9,616 nucleotides of DNA, taken from the IMG/VR virus record IMGVR_UViG_2778261570_000015; one strand, written 5' to 3'. Source of the stretch: a virus (Duplodnaviria; Heunggongvirae; Uroviricota; Caudoviricetes). Positions 1 through 7,969 of this stretch are shown here, one piece after another (position 1 is the first letter of the stretch; each line of letters begins with the position of its first letter). The notes under the pieces are model-generated. The model saw only the letters and a program-made list of their open reading frames with translations, had not been told where the DNA came from and did no database searches. A program made the position numbers and the translations under genes.

Positions 1-294
<294 letters not shown>

Positions 295-600
295 CCGTCC
301 AGAAGAAGATATTTTCACTGGCTGGTATGTCGCCAAAATCCAGCAATATGACAGCAAAGTCTGGCATTAATACAGCAGATACAAGCAAAGTTTATCATTT
401 TCTGGTGGTAGGAGCGGATGCCTTAACTATGTCAGAAATTACGGTCGATGGTGTTAGCGTTGAGAAGGTCGGCGGCTGCGCCAGAGAATTTCTGGTCGTA
501 GATGGCTTTCTCTGCTCGCGTAGTGACTCCACAAAAACCTTCGTCCACACGCGCGACGTTAACGAAATGAGCGCGATGTATTGTGCATCTGGTGCTTCCA

Positions 601-628
601 ATAGTGAGTTTTCGGAGTCCATAAAAAA
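601..628 (+). repeat. Direct repeat copy 1 (AGTTTT-NN-GAGTCCATAAAAAA); partner at 6481-6504
   Basis: 14-nt exact match GAGTCCATAAAAAA at 615-628 and 6491-6504, extended to 20/22 identity by AGTTTT at 607-612 and 6483-6488. Confidence 0.6.
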
Positions 629-725
629 GAGCTTGCCGTTATGCGGCAACACGGTTTATGGTTATAAGGCACCTCATAAAACGGGTGCCGGGTTTCGCAG
701 CCCGGAAATGTACGAGGCGACACAT

Positions 726-747
726 GACGCGCCGAGCGTCTTTTTTT
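726..747 (+). terminator. Weak intrinsic terminator candidate (5-bp GC-rich stem, 5-nt loop, T7 tract)
   Basis: GACGC (726-730) pairs with GCGTC (736-740), followed by TTTTTTT (741-747). Short stem, so marginal. Confidence 0.35.
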
Positions 748-754
748 GTGCCGT

Positions 755-800
755 TAGCCAGACTCACACTTTTTTCAGTGATGCGGTTATAATCCGCGTC
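755..800 (+). promoter_or_regulatory. Sigma70-type promoter candidate for the primase operon; -10 TATAAT at 788-793 flanked by a GCGG/CCGC inverted repeat
   Basis: Perfect TATAAT hexamer at 788-793; the -35 region is poor (CACACT-like). GCGG (783-786) and CCGC (794-797) embrace the -10, an operator-like arrangement. First SD-bearing start codon downstream is at 950. Confidence 0.35.
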
Positions 801-949
801 GCTTGCAAAATTATGGTGGGCTGGACAGGGCAGCCGAAAGGCTGGCCGGTTTCCTTGTACGCCGGTACTGCGAACTCTGTTCAGTCCACCACCAGCGAGT
901 TTCGCAGCTCCGGTGGTGGGAAGAATTCCCAGTACAAGGAGGCTGCCAC

Positions 950-1144
950 ATGCTGGCTACTACCCCTACCCAAAAACCGCAATTTATCTGGATTATCGCC
1001 GCAGTTCGCCGCGATTGCCCGACAATTACCGCCAAAATTCATCATATTGCTGCCGAGTCTGAACGCGATGCTCGCCGTTCTCTGGTGCGCGATCACATCT
1101 GCTTTTTTGCTGGTCGTATCCGCATGGAGGTGGCACATGATTAA
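950..1144 (+). CDS. Hypothetical small protein, 64 aa (first gene of primase operon)
   Basis: ATG 950 preceded by AAGGAGG (936-942, spacing 7). Codons in this frame are enterobacterial-preferred (CGC/CGT, CTG, ACC, ATC); the alternative long frame here has CTA/TTA/AGG/ATA and about 6% Trp. Stop overlaps the next start. Confidence 0.55.
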   Translation: MLATTPTQKPQFIWIIAAVRRDCPTITAKIHHIAAESERDARRSLVRDHICFFAGRIRMEVAHD

Positions 1145-1355
1145 AACCTACGATGTGCATATGGATCCCCTCGAACGCACAAGCCAGATCATCACACTGA
1201 CAGAAGTGATTAACGACATTCTGGTGAGCAACTCTCCCTCACGAGACGAAAGACTGAAGGCGTTACTCGCGATATTGGATCTCGCCGTTCGTGACGTTCA
1301 TTTCCTGCTGGAAGGTGGACAAATGCCATGCAAAACGGGGGCAACCAATGAATAA
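1137..1355 (+). CDS. Hypothetical small protein, 72 aa
   Basis: ATG 1137 preceded by GGAGG (1126-1130); overlaps the previous stop (ATGATTAA). Same frame as the 288-1355 track ORF, of which it is probably the only real part. Confidence 0.55.
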   Translation: MIKTYDVHMDPLERTSQIITLTEVINDILVSNSPSRDERLKALLAILDLAVRDVHFLLEGGQMPCKTGATNE

Positions 1356-2967: not shown

Positions 2968-3331
2968 AAATGTAGAAATGGCGCTTAGCTCCGCAATCGG
3001 AGAGCAGGTGGCAAAGATTGCTGGTGCTGTGTGGATTCATAACCTTCATTCTACTGGTGAAGAGAAAATGGCAATTCAGACGCCAGAGGGACGCACCATT
3101 ACTACATCTCTGAAGCCGTCAGATGTTTGTGATCTGATTTGCGCATTCATGTACCCAGCAATGAGGACTGTCCACGGCGATAAGTGGAAACTTGCGACAA
3201 CCGCTGAATTTGATATGTGGCTAAACAATGATGGCATGCTGACTGATTACGGAATAACCAAGTGGCAGATGCTAGTTAGCCATATCGCAAACGCTATAGA
3301 CCACGTGGGGTACGGTGATGCGAAACATTGA
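2960..3331 (+). CDS. Hypothetical protein, 123 aa
   Basis: ATG 2960 overlaps the previous stop; GGGAGG upstream. Track ORF. Its 3' end overlaps the primase start by 14 nt. Confidence 0.65.
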   Translation: MRENVEMALSSAIGEQVAKIAGAVWIHNLHSTGEEKMAIQTPEGRTITTSLKPSDVCDLICAFMYPAMRTVHGDKWKLATTAEFDMWLNNDGMLTDYGITKWQMLVSHIANAIDHVGYGDAKH

Positions 3332-6074
3332 TCTTATCCGTCAGGTTATCAGTGCGTCTGAAAACAACTGGCCTCATGTGCTGGGCTGCCTGAACATAAA
3401 TGTCCCTGACTCTCCGCGCCGTCATGCTCCCTGCCCTGCATGTGGGGGCAAAGATCGATTCCGGTTCGATGACAACGGGCGCGGTAGCTTCATCTGTAAT
3501 CAGTGCGGCGCTGGTGATGGGCTGGATTTAATTAAACGCGTAAATAACTGCGACACAACAGAGGCGGCGCTTCTTGCCGCTGATGTTCTGGGTATTGATT
3601 ACCGGACAACGGAAACACCAGAAGCCACCAGCCAGAAACGGGAACAACTGGAAACCGAGCGCCAGCGACGCGAACAGGAGCGCCTGAAAAGGGCAGAGAA
3701 GGACGAACAACAAAGACGGGATACGTTTTCCCGTCAGTTTGATGACATGCGCAGAAAGGCTGTAAACGGCAAATCTGATTATCTGGTTGCGAAAGGGGTA
3801 GGTGATTTTACATTCCCCGTGTTGCCCGATGGATCTCTGTTGCTGGCGCTGGTGGATAAATCCGGCGCAGTAACAGCAGCACAGACTATTACCTCACATG
3901 GTGAAAAAAGACTCCTGACAGGTTCAGCAAAGCGAGGGGCATATCACGCCATAAACGCACCAGAAACAACACAGAGCATCTTAATCGCAGAAGGGCTGGC
4001 AACGGCATTATCTGCCCATTTAATGCGTCCAGAGGCGCTGACAGTGGCGGCGATTGATGCCGGGAACCTGTTATATGTCGCCCAGGTACTGCGGGATAAA
4101 TTTCCTTCAGCACAAATCATCATTGCTGCGGATAACGACCACAGCGAAGGAAGACAAAACACGGGGAGAATAGCAGCAGAAAAAGCAGCTTTATCTGTTT
4201 CTGGATGGGTGGCATTACCCCCGACAGATCACAAAGCAGACTGGAATGATTACCACCAAAAACACGGTATTAAATGCGCCACAGAAGCGTTCAATAAGTC
4301 AATGTACCAACCACAGGGTAATGGCGTGAAACAGGAGCCACAGACCATTGAGGGAAGCGATTTTAAGGTTATGGATACCGATCCACTGAAACCAAGAATA
4401 GAAAGCCGCGAGGATGGTATTTATTGGGTATCTCCGAGAGCTGACAGCCAGAGTGGAGAAATCATCAATAACGAAAGCTGGTTATGTTCTCCGTTAAGCG
4501 TTATCGGTACTGGCAGAGACGATAAAGACCAGTATCTCATTCTTCGCTGGCTGTCGTTTGGTTCTGAAACGCCGACAACCGCTGCCATTCCACTGGCTGA
4601 TATTGGTGAACGTGAAGGATGGCGCACACTTAAAGCTGGTGGGGTAAATGTCACGACCAAAAGCAGCCTCAGAGCAATACTGGCAGACTGGCTACAACGC
4701 AGTGGCTCTCGTGAATTGTGGCGTGTTGCTCATGCCACTGGCTGGCAATGCGGAGCGTACATCATGCCTGATGGGGAAATCATCGGAACACCTGAAAATC
4801 CTGTGCTGTTCAGCGGGAGAAGCTCAGCCGCAGCCGGATATACCGTCTCAGGGAGCGCGAAAAGCTGGCGTGATAACGTGGCGCGTCTGGCCTTTGGTAA
4901 CTATTCAATGATGACCGGGATCGGCGCAGCACTGGCAGCGCCATTGATTGGGCTGGTGGGCGCTGACGGGTTCGGCATTCATTTCTATGAGCAGTCGAGC
5001 GCAGGTAAGACCACCACGGCAAACGTGGCGAGCAGCTTATACGGCAACCCTGATTTACTGCGGCTGACGTGGTACGGAACCGCGCTGGGGCTGGCAAATG
5101 AGGCCGCCGCCCACAATGACGGACTAATGCCGCTTGATGAAGTTGGTCAGGGCGCTGATCCTGTCAGCGTTTCACAGTCTGCCTATGCGTTATTTAACGG
5201 TGTAGGGAAACTGCAAGGCGCTAAAGATGGTGGAAACCGGGATCTAAAACGCTGGCGTACAGTGGCAATCAGCACCGGAGAAATGGATTTAGAAACATTT
5301 ATCGCTACTTCCGGGCGAAAAACCAAAGCCGGGCAACTGGTGCGACTGCTGAATATTCCGTTGAGTAAAGCAGTACGCTTTCACGATTACCAGAACGGAA
5401 AACAGCACGCAGACGCACTGAAAGACGCTTACCAGCATCACCACGGCGCGTCCGGGCGTGAGTGGATTAAATGGCTGGCAGACCACCAGCAACAGGCTAT
5501 TAAAACCGTTCGTGACTGCGAAAGCAGATGGAGAAGCCTGATCCCATCCGATTATGGTGAGCAGGTTCACCGTGTAGCCGCGCGATTTGCCATTCTGGAG
5601 GCCGCATTGTTGTTAGGCGAGGTTGTAACAGGCTGGGATGCTCAGACATGCCGTGATGCGATACAGCACAGCTATAACGCATGGTTGCGCGAGTTCGGCA
5701 CAGGTAACAAAGAGCATCAGCAGATTATTGAACAAACGGAGGCATTTCTTAATGCCTATGGGCTTAGCCGTTTTGCACCATTTCCATACAGCCCGGCAGA
5801 TTTGCCCATCAAAGATTTAGCCGGATACCGTCAGCGTGGAGAACATGACGAAAGCCCAATGATTTTCTACACATTCCCGGCCACATTTGAAAAGGAGATC
5901 GCATGTGGTTTCAACGCAAAACAGTTTGCTGAAGTGTTGAAAAAAGCCGGGATGCTAACCCCACCAAACAGCGGTCGTGGATACCAAAGAAAATCACCAC
6001 GTATTCAGGGACGACAAATAAACGTTTATGTACTCAATTACCAGCCAGGAGATTATAACTCATCTGAAGAATGA
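3318..6074 (+). CDS. DNA primase-helicase (replication initiator), about 918 aa: N-terminal zinc ribbon, TOPRIM primase core, P-loop NTPase domain (phage P4 alpha-like / DUF927-like architecture)
   Basis: Zinc ribbon CPACGGKDRFRFDD...CNQCG (about 3420-3524). TOPRIM signatures IAEG and AADNDHSEGR (about 3972-4244). Walker A-like SSAGKTT and Walker B-like LMPLDEVGQ (about 4980-5150). Start ATG 3318 (GGGG at 3307-3310); the track's GTG 3315 is too close to the SD. Confidence 0.9.
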   Translation: MRNIDLIRQVISASENNWPHVLGCLNINVPDSPRRHAPCPACGGKDRFRFDDNGRGSFICNQCGAGDGLDLIKRVNNCDTTEAALLAADVLGIDYRTTETPEATSQKREQLETERQRREQERLKRAEKDEQQRRDTFSRQFDDMRRKAVNGKSDYLVAKGVGDFTFPVLPDGSLLLALVDKSGAVTAAQTITSHGEKRLLTGSAKRGAYHAINAPETTQSILIAEGLATALSAHLMRPEALTVAAIDAGNLLYVAQVLRDKFPSAQIIIAADNDHSEGRQNTGRIAAEKAALSVSGWVALPPTDHKADWNDYHQKHGIKCATEAFNKSMYQPQGNGVKQEPQTIEGSDFKVMDTDPLKPRIESREDGIYWVSPRADSQSGEIINNESWLCSPLSVIGTGRDDKDQYLILRWLSFGSETPTTAAIPLADIGEREGWRTLKAGGVNVTTKSSLRAILADWLQRSGSRELWRVAHATGWQCGAYIMPDGEIIGTPENPVLFSGRSSAAAGYTVSGSAKSWRDNVARLAFGNYSMMTGIGAALAAPLIGLVGADGFGIHFYEQSSAGKTTTANVASSLYGNPDLLRLTWYGTALGLANEAAAHNDGLMPLDEVGQGADPVSVSQSAYALFNGVGKLQGAKDGGNRDLKRWRTVAISTGEMDLETFIATSGRKTKAGQLVRLLNIPLSKAVRFHDYQNGKQHADALKDAYQHHHGASGREWIKWLADHQQQAIKTVRDCESRWRSLIPSDYGEQVHRVAARFAILEAALLLGEVVTGWDAQTCRDAIQHSYNAWLREFGTGNKEHQQIIEQTEAFLNAYGLSRFAPFPYSPADLPIKDLAGYRQRGEHDESPMIFYTFPATFEKEIACGFNAKQFAEVLKKAGMLTPPNSGRGYQRKSPRIQGRQINVYVLNYQPGDYNSSEE

Positions 6075-6097
6075 GCTTCTTCATGTGCGTAGAAAAG

Positions 6098-6126
6098 GTG
6101 TTGGTTCAGTTGGTTCAGTTGGTTCA
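6098..6126 (+). repeat. Three tandem direct iterons GTTGGTTCA (first copy extended to GTGTTGGTTCA)
   Basis: Copies at 6098-6108, 6109-6117 and 6118-6126, read directly from the sequence. Confidence 0.7.
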
Positions 6127-6168
6127 ATTTGTAAAGAGTATTGTTTTATAAGGATTTTATTCTTTTTA

Positions 6169-6212
6169 TTGAACCAACACTGAACCAACAACACGGTATT
6201 TTGAACCAACAC
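6169..6212 (+). repeat. Three inverted-orientation iterons TGAACCAAC(AC), reverse complement of the upstream iterons
   Basis: Copies at 6169-6180, 6180-6191 and 6201-6212; centre spacing about 11 and 20-21 bp, roughly one and two helical turns. Confidence 0.7.
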
Positions 6213-6260
6213 AATGTGACTGAATTGATGCGCACAACACCTGGCTGGCATCAGAGAGTG

Positions 6261-6281
6261 TTTTACGAGACTTTCGTAAAA
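6261..6281 (+). promoter_or_regulatory. Palindromic operator-like site O1: TTTTACGA-N5-TCGTAAAA (core TACGA-N5-TCGTA)
   Basis: 8-bp perfect inverted arms at 6261-6268 and 6274-6281. Confidence 0.45.
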
Positions 6282-6318
6282 TCCTGTGTACAAGGGCGTG
6301 ACGTTTTTGAAAGTGAGC

Positions 6319-6337
6319 ACTACGAAATTTTCGTAGT
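6319..6337 (+). promoter_or_regulatory. Palindromic operator-like site O2: ACTACGAAA-T-TTTCGTAGT (core TACGA-N5-TCGTA)
   Basis: 9-bp perfect inverted arms at 6319-6327 and 6329-6337; same core and spacing as O1, 57 bp downstream. Confidence 0.45.
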
Positions 6338-6480
6338 TCAGAAAACAGCCTCTGAGAAGTTGTTATGCCTGTTCAGCAAACCATCCGCATAGCTGATCGC
6401 GAATCAAATTACCAATGGAGCCAGAAGCAAGGGCAGAACTGAAAAGCGCCTGCCGTGAAGAGTAATGCGACACCATAAAT

Positions 6481-6504
6481 ATAGTTTTTAGAGTCCATAA
6501 AAAA
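6481..6504 (+). repeat. Direct repeat copy 2 (AGTTTT-NN-GAGTCCATAAAAAA)
   Basis: See copy 1; lies 27 bp upstream of the 6531-6564 terminator. Confidence 0.6.
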
Positions 6505-6530
6505 CCTGTCAAAACCTGACACACAGAACG

Positions 6531-6564
6531 ATGCCACCAGCTACTGAGCGGTGGCATTTTTTTG
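6531..6564 (+). terminator. Rho-independent terminator, + strand
   Basis: ATGCCACC (6531-6538) pairs with GGTGGCAT (6550-6557), 11-nt loop, then TTTTTTT (6558-6564). No T-tract on the opposite strand, so unidirectional. Confidence 0.65.
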
Positions 6565-6584
6565 TGCTATTTGTTTCATATTTT

Positions 6585-6632
6585 GCAATTACGATGATGA
6601 ATATTGCGATTTGTGAAACTATAATAACTGTT
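6585..6632 (+). promoter_or_regulatory. Promoter candidate for the downstream operon; -10 TATAAT at 6620-6625
   Basis: Perfect TATAAT 34 bp upstream of the SD of the 6659 ORF; weak -35 (ATGAAT, 17-bp spacer); AT-rich upstream region. Confidence 0.4.
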
Positions 6633-6658
6633 GTTTTATACAGTTCTAAGGGGGCGTT

Positions 6659-6820
6659 ATGGCTATTTCAGTAAAGCCGGTATTGATAAGTGAGAAGCAA
6701 ATGGAAGCGATAAAGAAAATTCAGGAAGAGCAGCGTAAAAAATCAGGAATTGGAGTAGCGCCAACTCTGCATGAAATTGCACGAGGGTTAATAGATAAGG
6801 CGCTGGCAGGCTGTATGTGA
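6659..6820 (+). CDS. Small 53-aa protein, possible ribbon-helix-helix (CopG/Arc/MetJ-like) DNA-binding regulator; absent from the ORF track
   Basis: ATG 6659 preceded by AAGGGGG (6648-6654); stop TGA 6818-6820. Translation MAISVKPVLISEKQMEAIKKIQEEQRKKSGIGVAPTLHEIARGLIDKALAGCM has a short N-terminal beta-strand-like segment followed by two predicted helices. Next gene starts 16 nt downstream. Confidence 0.5.
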   Translation: MAISVKPVLISEKQMEAIKKIQEEQRKKSGIGVAPTLHEIARGLIDKALAGCM

Positions 6821-6836
6821 AAATGGATGGCATCGC

Positions 6837-7298
6837 ATGGAACTAAAATTTATTGATAACCCTGTGCGATTACAGGCCTTTCTTAACGAGCCAGGCAATA
6901 CCGAAAATATTGTTGAGCCGGGGCACACGTACTACATCAAGCCTGATGCGGTATATCTCGGCATCTACGAAGGATTAGTGCTGGCTGGCGTTCATGAAGT
7001 GCGTAACTTCTGGCATAGCGTTGTTGAATGCCATGCGGTGTACGACCCCGGATTCCGTGGTGAATATGCACTGCAAGGACATCGATTATTCTGCAAATGG
7101 CTTCTCGAAAACTCACCATTCCTTAACAGCATCACTATGGTTCCTGACACCACGAAATACGGACGGGCAATTATCCGTTTGCTTGGCGCTACCCGTGTTG
7201 GTCACCTTGATGATGCTTATATCAGATGTGGTAAACCCGTCGGCGTAACGCTTTATCAGTTAACTCGGCAACAATATAAGGAATTCAGCGAATGTTAA
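6837..7298 (+). CDS. Hypothetical protein, 153 aa
   Basis: Track ORF; ATG 6837 with GGATGG upstream; stop overlaps the next start. No family recognised. Confidence 0.7.
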   Translation: MELKFIDNPVRLQAFLNEPGNTENIVEPGHTYYIKPDAVYLGIYEGLVLAGVHEVRNFWHSVVECHAVYDPGFRGEYALQGHRLFCKWLLENSPFLNSITMVPDTTKYGRAIIRLLGATRVGHLDDAYIRCGKPVGVTLYQLTRQQYKEFSEC

Positions 7299-7969
7299 TT
7301 ACCCATATAGCTCATAAACATCTCAATCGTGCCGTATACGAAAAAGGCGGTGATGGTGGTGCCTCTAAAGCTCAGGCGAAGGCCCAGCAGCAGGCAATTG
7401 ATTTGCAGCGCGAGCAGTGGAATACGGTGATGAATAATCTCAAGCCGTATGCAGAAGTCGGATTGCCTGCTTTACAACAACTACAAGGACTGATGACTCT
7501 GGAAGGGCAGAATAAAGCCGCGAATGATTTCTTTGGTTCTGGTTTATATAAAACACAGGCAGATCAGGCCCGTTATCAGAACCTTGTCTCAGCAGAAGCT
7601 ACCGGGGGGCTTGGCTCAACAGCTACCAGTAACCAGTTATCTTCCATTGCGCCCATGCTTTATAACAATTGGCTTAGTGGGCAAATGCAAAATTATGGAA
7701 ACCTGCTAAATGTCGGGATGAATGCGGCATCAGGGCAGGCAACGGCAGGGCAAAACTACGCCAATAATACCGGACAACTCTTGCAGGGGCTTGGCGCTAT
7801 TCGTGCAGGTCAGGCGCAGCAGCCATCCAGTCTTGCGCGTGGTATTGGTGGGGCAGCATCAGGCGCTTTAGCGGGTGCGCAACTTGGTTCCGTTGTTCCT
7901 GGAATAGGAACTGCGGCCGGCGCTATTGGTGGTGGGCTTATTGGTCTTGTTGGGGGGCTTGGATTCTAA
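7292..7969 (+). CDS. Ala/Gln/Gly-rich protein, 225 aa, with a glycine-zipper hydrophobic C-terminus; putative internal-virion/ejection-type protein
   Basis: Track ORF; start overlaps the previous stop; AAGGAA upstream. Low-complexity AQ-rich N-terminal part; C-terminus GIGTAAGAIGGGLIGLVGGLGF. Composition resembles podovirus internal core proteins; not verified by homology. Confidence 0.65.
   Translation: MLITHIAHKHLNRAVYEKGGDGGASKAQAKAQQQAIDLQREQWNTVMNNLKPYAEVGLPALQQLQGLMTLEGQNKAANDFFGSGLYKTQADQARYQNLVSAEATGGLGSTATSNQLSSIAPMLYNNWLSGQMQNYGNLLNVGMNAASGQATAGQNYANNTGQLLQGLGAIRAGQAQQPSSLARGIGGAASGALAGAQLGSVVPGIGTAAGAIGGGLIGLVGGLGF

Follow-up and report, generated by a model that had tools for sequence, protein, structure and literature searches.

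Paired palindromes beside the iteron origin of an EcCIMP1-like chromosomal island are probable relics of P1 Ant-type genes, a family with a conserved intragenic palindrome

This study concerns a pair of operator-like palindromes in a 9,616-nucleotide stretch of DNA (referred to throughout as the window; IMG/VR virus record IMGVR_UViG_2778261570_000015), which matches, at 100% identity, a chromosomal island that many Escherichia coli strains carry, here integrated adjoining yicC. The palindromes lie between an iteron origin and a terminator, and an earlier reading of the sequence (the original prediction) had taken them for two operators bound by a dimeric protein. Judging from homology, they are codons in two overlapping, decayed fragments of P1 Ant-type genes (phrog_1726), fused in frame. 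The explanation as a whole, which is held with fairly good confidence, is that these are fossil palindromes of dead Ant genes, inert in this island, and that the palindrome of the parent gene family is constrained at the nucleic-acid level and may be recognised by the protein that the gene encodes.

Site 1 (6261-6281, centre 6271) reads TTTTACGA-GACTT-TCGTAAAA with 8-bp perfect arms, and site 2 (6319-6337, centre 6328) reads ACTACGAAA-T-TTTCGTAGT with 9-bp perfect arms; neither is assigned to a strand. Both hold the core TACGA-N5-TCGTA (TACGAGACTTTCGTA at 6264-6278 and TACGAAATTTTCGTA at 6321-6335), and their centres are 57 bp apart. Site 1 can alternatively be read as TTTTACGAG-A-CTTTCGTAAAA, with 10-bp arms and one G.T mismatch. 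The coordinates, arms, core and spacing in the original prediction were all confirmed in the sequence. With up to one mismatch allowed, sites 1 and 2 are the only matches to TACGA-N5-TCGTA in the whole 9616-bp window, against an expectation of 0.12 per shuffle, and two matches arose in 1 of 200 shuffles. A search for further sites, which the prediction had proposed, found no third one across the whole 25-kb island, and none in the L003-type sibling island, the Klebsiella relative or the phage Kapi1 that are described below. No T-run follows site 1 or site 2 on either strand, so neither has the form of an intrinsic terminator, and Rfam covariance models gave zero matches across 6250-6350 at E values up to 1.

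The two sites share frame +3, at an offset of exactly 19 codons, inside a mechanical open reading frame (ORF) at 6141..6392, and both spell Tyr-Glu-x-Phe-Val (TAC GAG ACT TTC GTA at site 1, TAC GAA ATT TTC GTA at site 2). Site 2 is the palindrome of the 'H..V' subtype of the family, encoding H-Y-E-I-F-V-V, and the same 19-mer is found in the intact genes of L004, L013 and L134. It sits in a plus-strand fragment of an H..V-subtype Ant N-domain gene (..D-x-x-E-x-E-H-YEIFVVQK..RES.) at 6297..6406, recognised by tblastn, blastn and alignment. The intact homologue is a 242-aa gene of the P22-like prophage L004 and of Klebsiella phages, whose product matches phrog_1726 'anti-repressor' (E = 8e-101) and has an N-terminal domain with 54% identity to P1 Ant1/Ant2. 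With the L004 protein as query, tblastn gave 16/26 identities at 6297-6365 (E = 1e-4), with a further segment at 6332-6406 in frame +2; blastn of the 6297-6406 region gave 75% against the P22-like prophage and Klebsiella phage genes, and the alignment with L134 scored 114. Because the homology switches into frame +2, the window copy is frameshifted, with a deletion and a change from frame +3 to +2 past the palindrome. The region at 6297-6406 is thus homologous to the N-terminal domain gene of the P1 Ant1/Ant2 family (phrog_1726, whose members are annotated 'anti-repressor', 'KilA protein' or 'hypothetical'), but unlike the members of that family the window copies are truncated as well as frameshifted.

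Site 1 corresponds to the palindrome of another subtype, 'F..K', whose intact form is GTTTTACGAAACTTTCGTAAAAC; it differs by GAA -> GAG and encodes F-Y-E-T-F-V-K. Together with its flanks (GAG-TTTTACGAgACTTTCGTAAAA-yCyTG) it matches the subtype sequence GEF-YETFVK-P of L179, L181, L189 and L190, and the plus-strand fragment of an F..K-subtype Ant N-domain gene is placed at 6257..6296, where nothing can be recognised with clarity beyond the palindrome and a few adjoining bases. The same gene segment is therefore present twice, as two paralogous fragments, and this accounts for two 'operators' with one half-site that stand 57 bp, or 19 codons, apart.

Both sites are held by a chimeric plus-strand ORF of 54 codons at 6228..6392 (ATG 6228, TAG 6392), within the mechanical ORF, which has no RefSeq annotation, zero family-library matches and no Shine-Dalgarno sequence seen by eye, and it is probably not a gene. 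An intact gene of the family would show an N-domain ORF of ~100 codons through RESKAVRR; here ~35 codons are recognisable, followed by a frameshift and a stop at 6390-6392. Further plus-strand homology in frame +2, at 6359..6475, contains an internal stop and is related to the last 39 residues (..KSNATP*) of a 152-aa ORF that stands in L003-type islands in place of the palindromes (tblastn, 16/39 identities, E = 2e-5). The fragments occupy a variable accessory slot between the iteron origin and the terminator. The island has no intact gene of the phrog_1726 family, and the window sites are therefore orphans; no similarity was found between the AntA/B protein of the island and the Ant family, and Kapi1 also lacks a gene of this family. 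Site 1 is already eroding, and it is probable that both sites are inert fossils. Two observations count against this reading. The upstream reach of the F..K fragment to about 6210 is weak, with 6210-6256 only weakly similar to the subtype (gapped local alignments with L179/L189, scores 47-51), and the arms of site 2 are perfect throughout the island variants seen, an observation that is not significant given that there are too few substitutions.

Sibling islands bear on what the sites do for the island. The iterons, terminator and promoter region are unchanged in L003-type islands, which encode accession-identical 53-aa (WP_001018524.1) and DUF2824 proteins; in place of the palindrome region they carry the 152-aa ORF, and TACGA-N5-T(C/T)GTA is gone. 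In L002-type islands (enterotoxigenic E. coli H10407) the primase is a different one (DUF5906), the homology to the window starts at 6257, and site 1 has a second arm-breaking change, TTC -> TTT. Since these islands keep the sites despite the different primase, the sites travel with the downstream segment and not with the origin. A Klebsiella element, pKpvST101_3 (L431), has the same primase family and iterons, with zero sites in 10.7 kb. By this comparison the palindromes are dispensable for both the origin of the island and its downstream operon. The module junctions of the two sibling islands fall at or within site 1 (about 6257); that of L003 lies mid-site 1 (GTTTTACGA|AATCTG), and its homology to the window resumes near 6455.

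These islands also bear on two functions that the original prediction had offered. If the sites were operators of the island itself, a dimeric regulator (the 53-aa ribbon-helix-helix (RHH)-like protein, AlpA or another) would control a nearby promoter, which would suit two perfect dyads of one half-site and an RHH-like ORF 330 bp downstream. No promoter-like site was found nearby, however, a terminator intervenes before the operon, the sites are codons of a gene remnant with no third copy in the 25-kb island, and the upstream region of the operon has an inverted repeat of its own that differs. The prediction had held that operators should recur in homologous elements, and they are missing from L003-type islands, in which the 53-aa protein is identical and the promoter region is retained; no link between this protein and the sites was found, and their role as operators here is very improbable. 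An element that aids the TOPRIM-DUF927 primase/helicase or a host factor at the origin would be consistent with sites that start about 50 bp past the last iteron, yet this is scarcely credible where the Klebsiella relative, with the same primase family and iterons, and L003, with an identical origin, have no site, and where L002, with its DUF5906 primase, has sites and homology from 6257 onwards.

In intact genes the palindrome is a hallmark of the family. The family sample (231 loci, 170 distinct genes) was retrieved by protein patterns and is therefore blind to codon choice. Perfect arms at the Tyr-Glu-x-Phe-Val codons measure at least 7 bp in 165 of the 170 genes, at least 8 bp in 159 and at least 9 bp in 143. 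The same codons are used in ten very divergent genes from Escherichia, Klebsiella, Acinetobacter and Shewanella phages and P1, and P1-like genes (P1, JL22) carry the variant TACAC-AAAAA-GTG(T/C)A at these codons. Codon use at these residues is frozen among 108 non-redundant family genes: TAC for Tyr (108/108), GAA for Glu (85/86), TTC for Phe (86/86) and GTA for Val (105/106). The middle residue (Ile, Thr, Ser, Asn) is encoded by A-N-T in the main TACGA class, and the TACAC variants have AAA (Lys) there. Elsewhere in the protein, all codons are in use for the invariant Arg, Glu, Ser, Lys and Val residues (Glu 56/52, Lys 60/48, Arg six codons), and third positions hold 1.2-1.9 bits of information within the palindrome vs 0-0.3 bits at most third positions outside it. 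A mild synonymous constraint is also seen on the 3' side, at +13 to +22 nt from the centre (Gln CAA 48/50, Asn AAT 75/79, AAC 61/66), giving a slight asymmetry.

The two arms change together. One paired arm change, TACAAAA/TTTTGTA, combines Glu -> Lys with a synonymous Phe change, paired changes are also seen in the flanks (CAC/GTG, ACC/GGT, GGT/ACC, TTT/AAA), and arms reach up to 13 bp. In a covariation set of 85 unique 33-mers, compared with 500 shuffles and with slid controls, 89% of cells pair. Double changes occupy 87 cells vs 23 +/- 6 in the shuffles, a value that 0/500 shuffles reached, and the covariation score is 0.257 vs 0.091 in shuffles and at most 0.087 in slid controls. The synonymous site of one arm pairs with the non-synonymous site of the other, so that under dyad symmetry together with protein selection every base of the palindrome is frozen. 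The palindrome in intact genes is constrained at the nucleic-acid level.

The exact 19-mer ACTACGAAANTTTCGTAGT occurs in at least 120 IMG/VR contigs, 90 of these within family genes. In the representative genomes of 185,579 species it occurs in 58 stretches, 27 of them in family genes, with about 9 chance occurrences expected by arithmetic (596 Gb, 18 fixed bases). So low a count among this many species speaks against a host regulon, although a degenerate host motif may exist, and to our knowledge no host motif fits the dyad. A multi-site phage regulon was likewise rejected, as three complete phage genomes each have exactly one site, in the gene, and a recombination hotspot was rejected as breakpoints show no peak at the palindrome, in a comparison of 30 mosaic pairs only. 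No sequence homologues of the N-domain were found in Pfam or PDB. A full-text literature search for the palindrome sequences found no earlier description of an intragenic palindrome, a term search on antirepressor palindromes returned nothing relevant, and the position is unannotated in the P1 GenBank record; it seems that no description of this intragenic palindrome has appeared so far.

Other palindromes in antirepressor genes provide a control. The AntA/B gene of the island, just upstream of the window, holds a perfect 20-bp palindrome, TTTCCCCAAATTTGGGGAAA (L001 5646-5665). It is kept among close relatives only, in one of which a synonymous change breaks it, and distant AntA homologues lack it, which argues against palindromes as a general property of antirepressor genes. 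Because this control palindrome was lost, palindromes do not generally persist. A distant member of the Ant family (L519), with 30% identity and lacking the YExFV motif, carries another perfect palindrome, AACCGGAA-AAAAA-TTCCGGTT, at the equivalent position (codons 52-58), and two Pseudomonas phage members (L516 and L517) have TGGCGGCC-A-GGCCGCCA near the 5' end, at codons 7-13. In an Acinetobacter phage member (L009), residues 92-211 in the C-terminal half match the PADLOC candidate defence family PDC-S22 (E = 1.7e-16).

The core of the palindrome tracks a residue of the encoded protein. In the predicted model of the protein a helix (41-51) is followed by a beta-hairpin, and the C-domain is MerR-like winged-helix. 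Across 219 distinct genes, the palindrome core follows the residue just before the conserved Phe, in helix 41-51, in 219/219: Asp goes with TACGA..TCGTA (177 genes), Val with TACAA..TTGTA (12 genes, in five wing backgrounds, three of which are also found with Asp), Lys with TACAC..GTGTA or TACAC..GGGTA (20 genes), and Ser with TACA(C/T)..ATGTA (10 genes). The dyad could thus be read, as double-stranded DNA, by a dimeric KilA-N-like product of the same gene, and would then serve as an aba-like self-recognition or autoregulatory site. That the family palindrome is such an element, recognised by its own protein, is a serious possibility, put forward tentatively on sequence association and by analogy. 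The original prediction had called for a dimeric DNA-binding protein, and this part of it is plausible for the parent family, given the agreement between core and helix residue, but not for operators in the island.

BstA offers the closest precedent (Owen et al., 2021; PMC8585504): this prophage protein contains a KilA-N-like domain, and its cognate DNA element, aba, overlaps the sequence that encodes it. The aba element acts as DNA, in variant-specific pairs with BstA, and BstA is suppressed by the cognate element on a replicon (PMC8585504). The Ant family resembles this system in having a short DNA element in the protein's own locus, and its pairing of core class with helix residue may reflect a comparable variant specificity; BstA and aba are the best analogy available for how the family palindrome may work. 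The two differ in that aba, at 63 bp, extends across the start codon and bears direct repeats (CCCGCC) at its ends, with no dyad. Membership of the BstA family itself was rejected, as a PADLOC BstA match is absent in seven Ant-family members. A second comparison is with the Arc/Mnt operators of P22 immI, bound by ribbon-helix-helix repressors that control ant, which are also odd-centred dyads near the antirepressor genes of P22-like phages; three Arc-family proteins are encoded around the ant genes of the L004 prophage. Arc/Mnt operators overlap promoters, have a different sequence and vary among phages, whereas the family dyad lies within the gene and is conserved among phages as far apart as those of Pseudomonas and Escherichia.

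Several observations weigh against self-recognition. The outer positions, 8-11 from the centre, covary even though many bases are tolerated there, which is a better fit to intra-strand pairing, or to templated fold-back mutation, than to a fixed protein footprint. The arms differ in length, spanning 7 to 13 bp across the gene sample and up to about 15 bp by eye in some non-coding copies. The helix residue also covaries with residue 49, and as the core bases are at the same time the codon of residue 49, the association between core and helix is confounded; a residue-residue contact within the protein, or templated mutation, could produce it instead. Finally, no conserved neighbouring regulator was found when the ORFs within 3 kb were clustered over 111 context groups; the neighbour clusters are the Ant family itself and lineage-specific Cro-like or RHH-like genes.

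The palindrome also occurs outside recognisable genes, in 30 IMG/VR and 31 genomic cases. These include island copies (L077, L109, L123, L425), 40-nt remnants flanked by a P22-type ant gene and the tailspike gene (L037, L078), copies that directly follow the stop codon in antirepressor genes of other types (L076, L091, L121, L072) and an in-frame copy in a KilAC-type linker (L057). Some are non-coding pairs, with centres 23 bp apart at L095 5421-5458 and L380 1068-1105, and 19 bp apart at L400 221-254; an example of the 23-bp spacing is TTTTACGA-N5-TCGTAAAA-CT-CACTACGAAAGTTTCGTAGTG. Others form a non-coding cluster, as at L418 5445-5620 (the L418/L382/L036 cluster), and the Pseudomonas cluster after tRNA-Thr, beside pilA, also holds TTCGTACGAA and GGTACGAATTTCGTCC. 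Several non-coding copies lie 100-400 nt past tRNA genes. Several copies still show residual gene similarity, L036 in the tRNA-linked Pseudomonas cluster among them, and at the tRNA-adjacent chromosomal loci L418, L382, L400 and L404 no such similarity was matched. A role as attachment (att) sites was rejected, since copies that retain gene similarity are read as gene relics at prophage ends. Most of the non-coding copies are read as relics like the window pair. They were ascertained by an exact-palindrome search, which biases this sample to intact copies, and because they were found in this way they cannot show that the dyad outlives the gene.

Retention of the orphan copies for a purpose was weighed against simple decay. 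By analogy with BstA, the window sites might be decoy or immunity sites that titrate or sense an Ant/KilA-N-type protein of a helper or co-resident prophage. The suppression of BstA by a cognate element offers a precedent (PMC8585504), site 2 is perfect among the island variants, the sites adjoin the origin, non-coding copies exist elsewhere, some of them paired (L095, L380, L400, L418/L382/L036), and P22-like phages with an intact family gene exist (L004, phiKp_30). However, site 1 is eroding, L003-type islands manage without sites, Kapi1, the demonstrated helper of EcCIMP1, lacks the gene and also, even with one mismatch allowed, any site, and many non-coding copies with residual gene similarity are plain relics within a sample biased to intact palindromes; a decoy function is rather unlikely. 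A broader proposal is that more than 2000 KilA-N-like 'antirepressor' proteins possess a self-recognition or autoregulatory dyad, placed in the codons for their DNA-binding domain and with a core that co-evolves with a helix residue (D/TACGA, V/TACAA, K/TACAC and S classes), and that satellites keep orphan copies by the origin to escape or sense the protein from a helper or rival prophage; as a whole it is speculative and would be unlikely to hold.

The constraint in intact genes might alternatively have nothing to do with a binding protein. Complementarity of the arms extends to the central base, with base -1 being A in all sequences despite a varying amino acid; wobble pairs are unenriched (3 G.T vs 8 A.C cells at positions 1-9), and the palindrome hairpins are modest, at about -6 to -9 kcal/mol. 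For these reasons, and since Rfam is empty here, the constraint is read as acting on DNA symmetry. RNA hairpins in a transcript (primase read-through, or ant mRNA) that serve as stability or processing signals would agree with hairpins of -8.6 to -8.8 kcal/mol at z-scores of -2.8 to -3.7 vs shuffles, with covarying arms, and with the mild synonymous constraint 13-22 nt to the 3' side, but the pairing reaches into what would be a 1-nt loop and a U-run is absent on both strands, which, with the Rfam, wobble and energy results just given, makes this quite improbable. An RNA hairpin and a DNA-level templated correction may also act together. Functionless self-maintenance, in which fold-back template switching copies one arm onto the other whilst selection on Tyr, Glu, Phe and Val freezes the sites, would explain the strictly Watson-Crick arms, the variable arm length, the failure to find a partner gene and the single copy per phage genome. 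Template switching can create and maintain perfect hairpins (Monttinen and Loytynoja, 2022; PMC8794818), and quasi-palindrome mutation of this kind accounts for double changes in a single step, for perfect arms and for their growth. By itself it would predict neither the helix association nor family-wide retention: nothing in it leads one to expect that the core follows, without exception, a helix residue 18 codons distant, or that a 30%-identical member holds another palindrome in the same position, and the 20-bp AntA/B palindrome was not kept in distant homologues and was broken synonymously in one close relative. It is therefore considered unlikely, and recognition by the encoded protein is retained as the tentative reading for the family.

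The surroundings of the pair agree with the original prediction, whose landmarks (the iteron origin, the terminator and the lack of promoter hexamers) hold. Direct iterons (GTTGGTTCA x3) lie at 6100-6132 and inverted iterons (TGAACCAAC x3) at 6169-6212, and the two sets bracket an AT-rich stretch. A terminator-like hairpin with seven T's lies at about 6522-6566, of which the terminator scan reports only the hairpin 6540-6555, and it stands between the palindrome pair and the downstream operon. A promoter scan found no sigma-70-like promoter in 5900-6900. An inverted repeat at 6573-6589 / 6603-6619 (GTTTCATATTTTGCAAT / ATTGCGATTTGTGAAAC), with 17-nt arms that are 76% complementary, ends in a perfect TATAAT at 6620-6625, just upstream of the 53-aa RHH-like ORF (6659-6820). 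The inverted repeat and TATAAT at 6573-6625 are a better candidate for the control region of the DUF2824/ejection-protein operon than the palindromes.

The first part of the island encodes an integrase, a small helix-turn-helix (AlpA-type) regulator, an AntA/B antirepressor, DUF4222 and an 'Ash family' coding sequence (CDS). The TOPRIM-DUF927 primase (window 3315-6074) is followed by the 53-aa ORF, DUF2824, homologues of P22 gp7 and ejection proteins, and PerC, and window 6930-7325 has 91% identity to phage Kapi1. By its integrase, AlpA-type regulator and primase, the lack of capsid and lysis genes and the similarity to Kapi1, the window is part of an EcCIMP1-like phage-inducible chromosomal island (PICI). 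EcCIMP1 is a PICI of E. coli whose mobilisation depends on the P22-like phage Kapi1 as helper (Pick et al., 2025; PMC11773190). The gene set is the same (integrase, AlpA-type regulator, antirepressor, Ash-family, primase, DUF2824, DNA-transfer genes and PerC), but the island studied here lies beside yicC and not at tRNA-Thr. A term search of that article found the origin of replication, a pac site and a palindrome unmentioned.

Some further features were observed away from the palindromes. Rfam matches on the plus strand comprise a C4 antisense RNA at 809-896 (81 bits), an isrK-like RNA at 669-746 (69 bits) and a weak a1/b1 target match at 656-708, all within the CDS 288..1355 annotated 'ash family protein' (355 aa). 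Because these three occur together, a P1/P7-type immI antisense control module seems to stand upstream of the PICI replication genes, and the call of the 355-aa CDS is doubtful. Window 436-542 on the plus strand is 87% identical, in inverted orientation, to the part of P22 gene 3 that bears the packaging signal (pac), and 521-542 (TAGTGACTCCACAAAAACCTTC) agrees with P22 TAACGACTTCAGATAAATCTTC at 15/22 positions; the segment 436-542 is put forward as a candidate signal for packaging by a P22-like helper. The packaging mechanism of EcCIMP1 is stated as unknown (PMC11773190). In the helper Kapi1 (L435), at 13120-14132 and 33998-35553, an HNH endonuclease gene directly follows each antirepressor gene.

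For the window the outcome is deflationary, as the operator-like pair is pseudogene debris on the present explanation, which would take a false regulatory element off the map of EcCIMP1-like PICIs and shift attention to the inverted repeat and TATAAT as the real candidate control region. At the same time, it points to a very common phage gene family with a nucleic-acid element hidden in its coding sequence. If the protein does read the site, this would be a second example, independent of BstA/aba, of a phage protein with a DNA element in its own gene, and would offer a natural system in which specificity classes are readable from sequence. The control of antirepressors, self/non-self recognition among prophages and its exploitation by satellites would then become directly testable questions.

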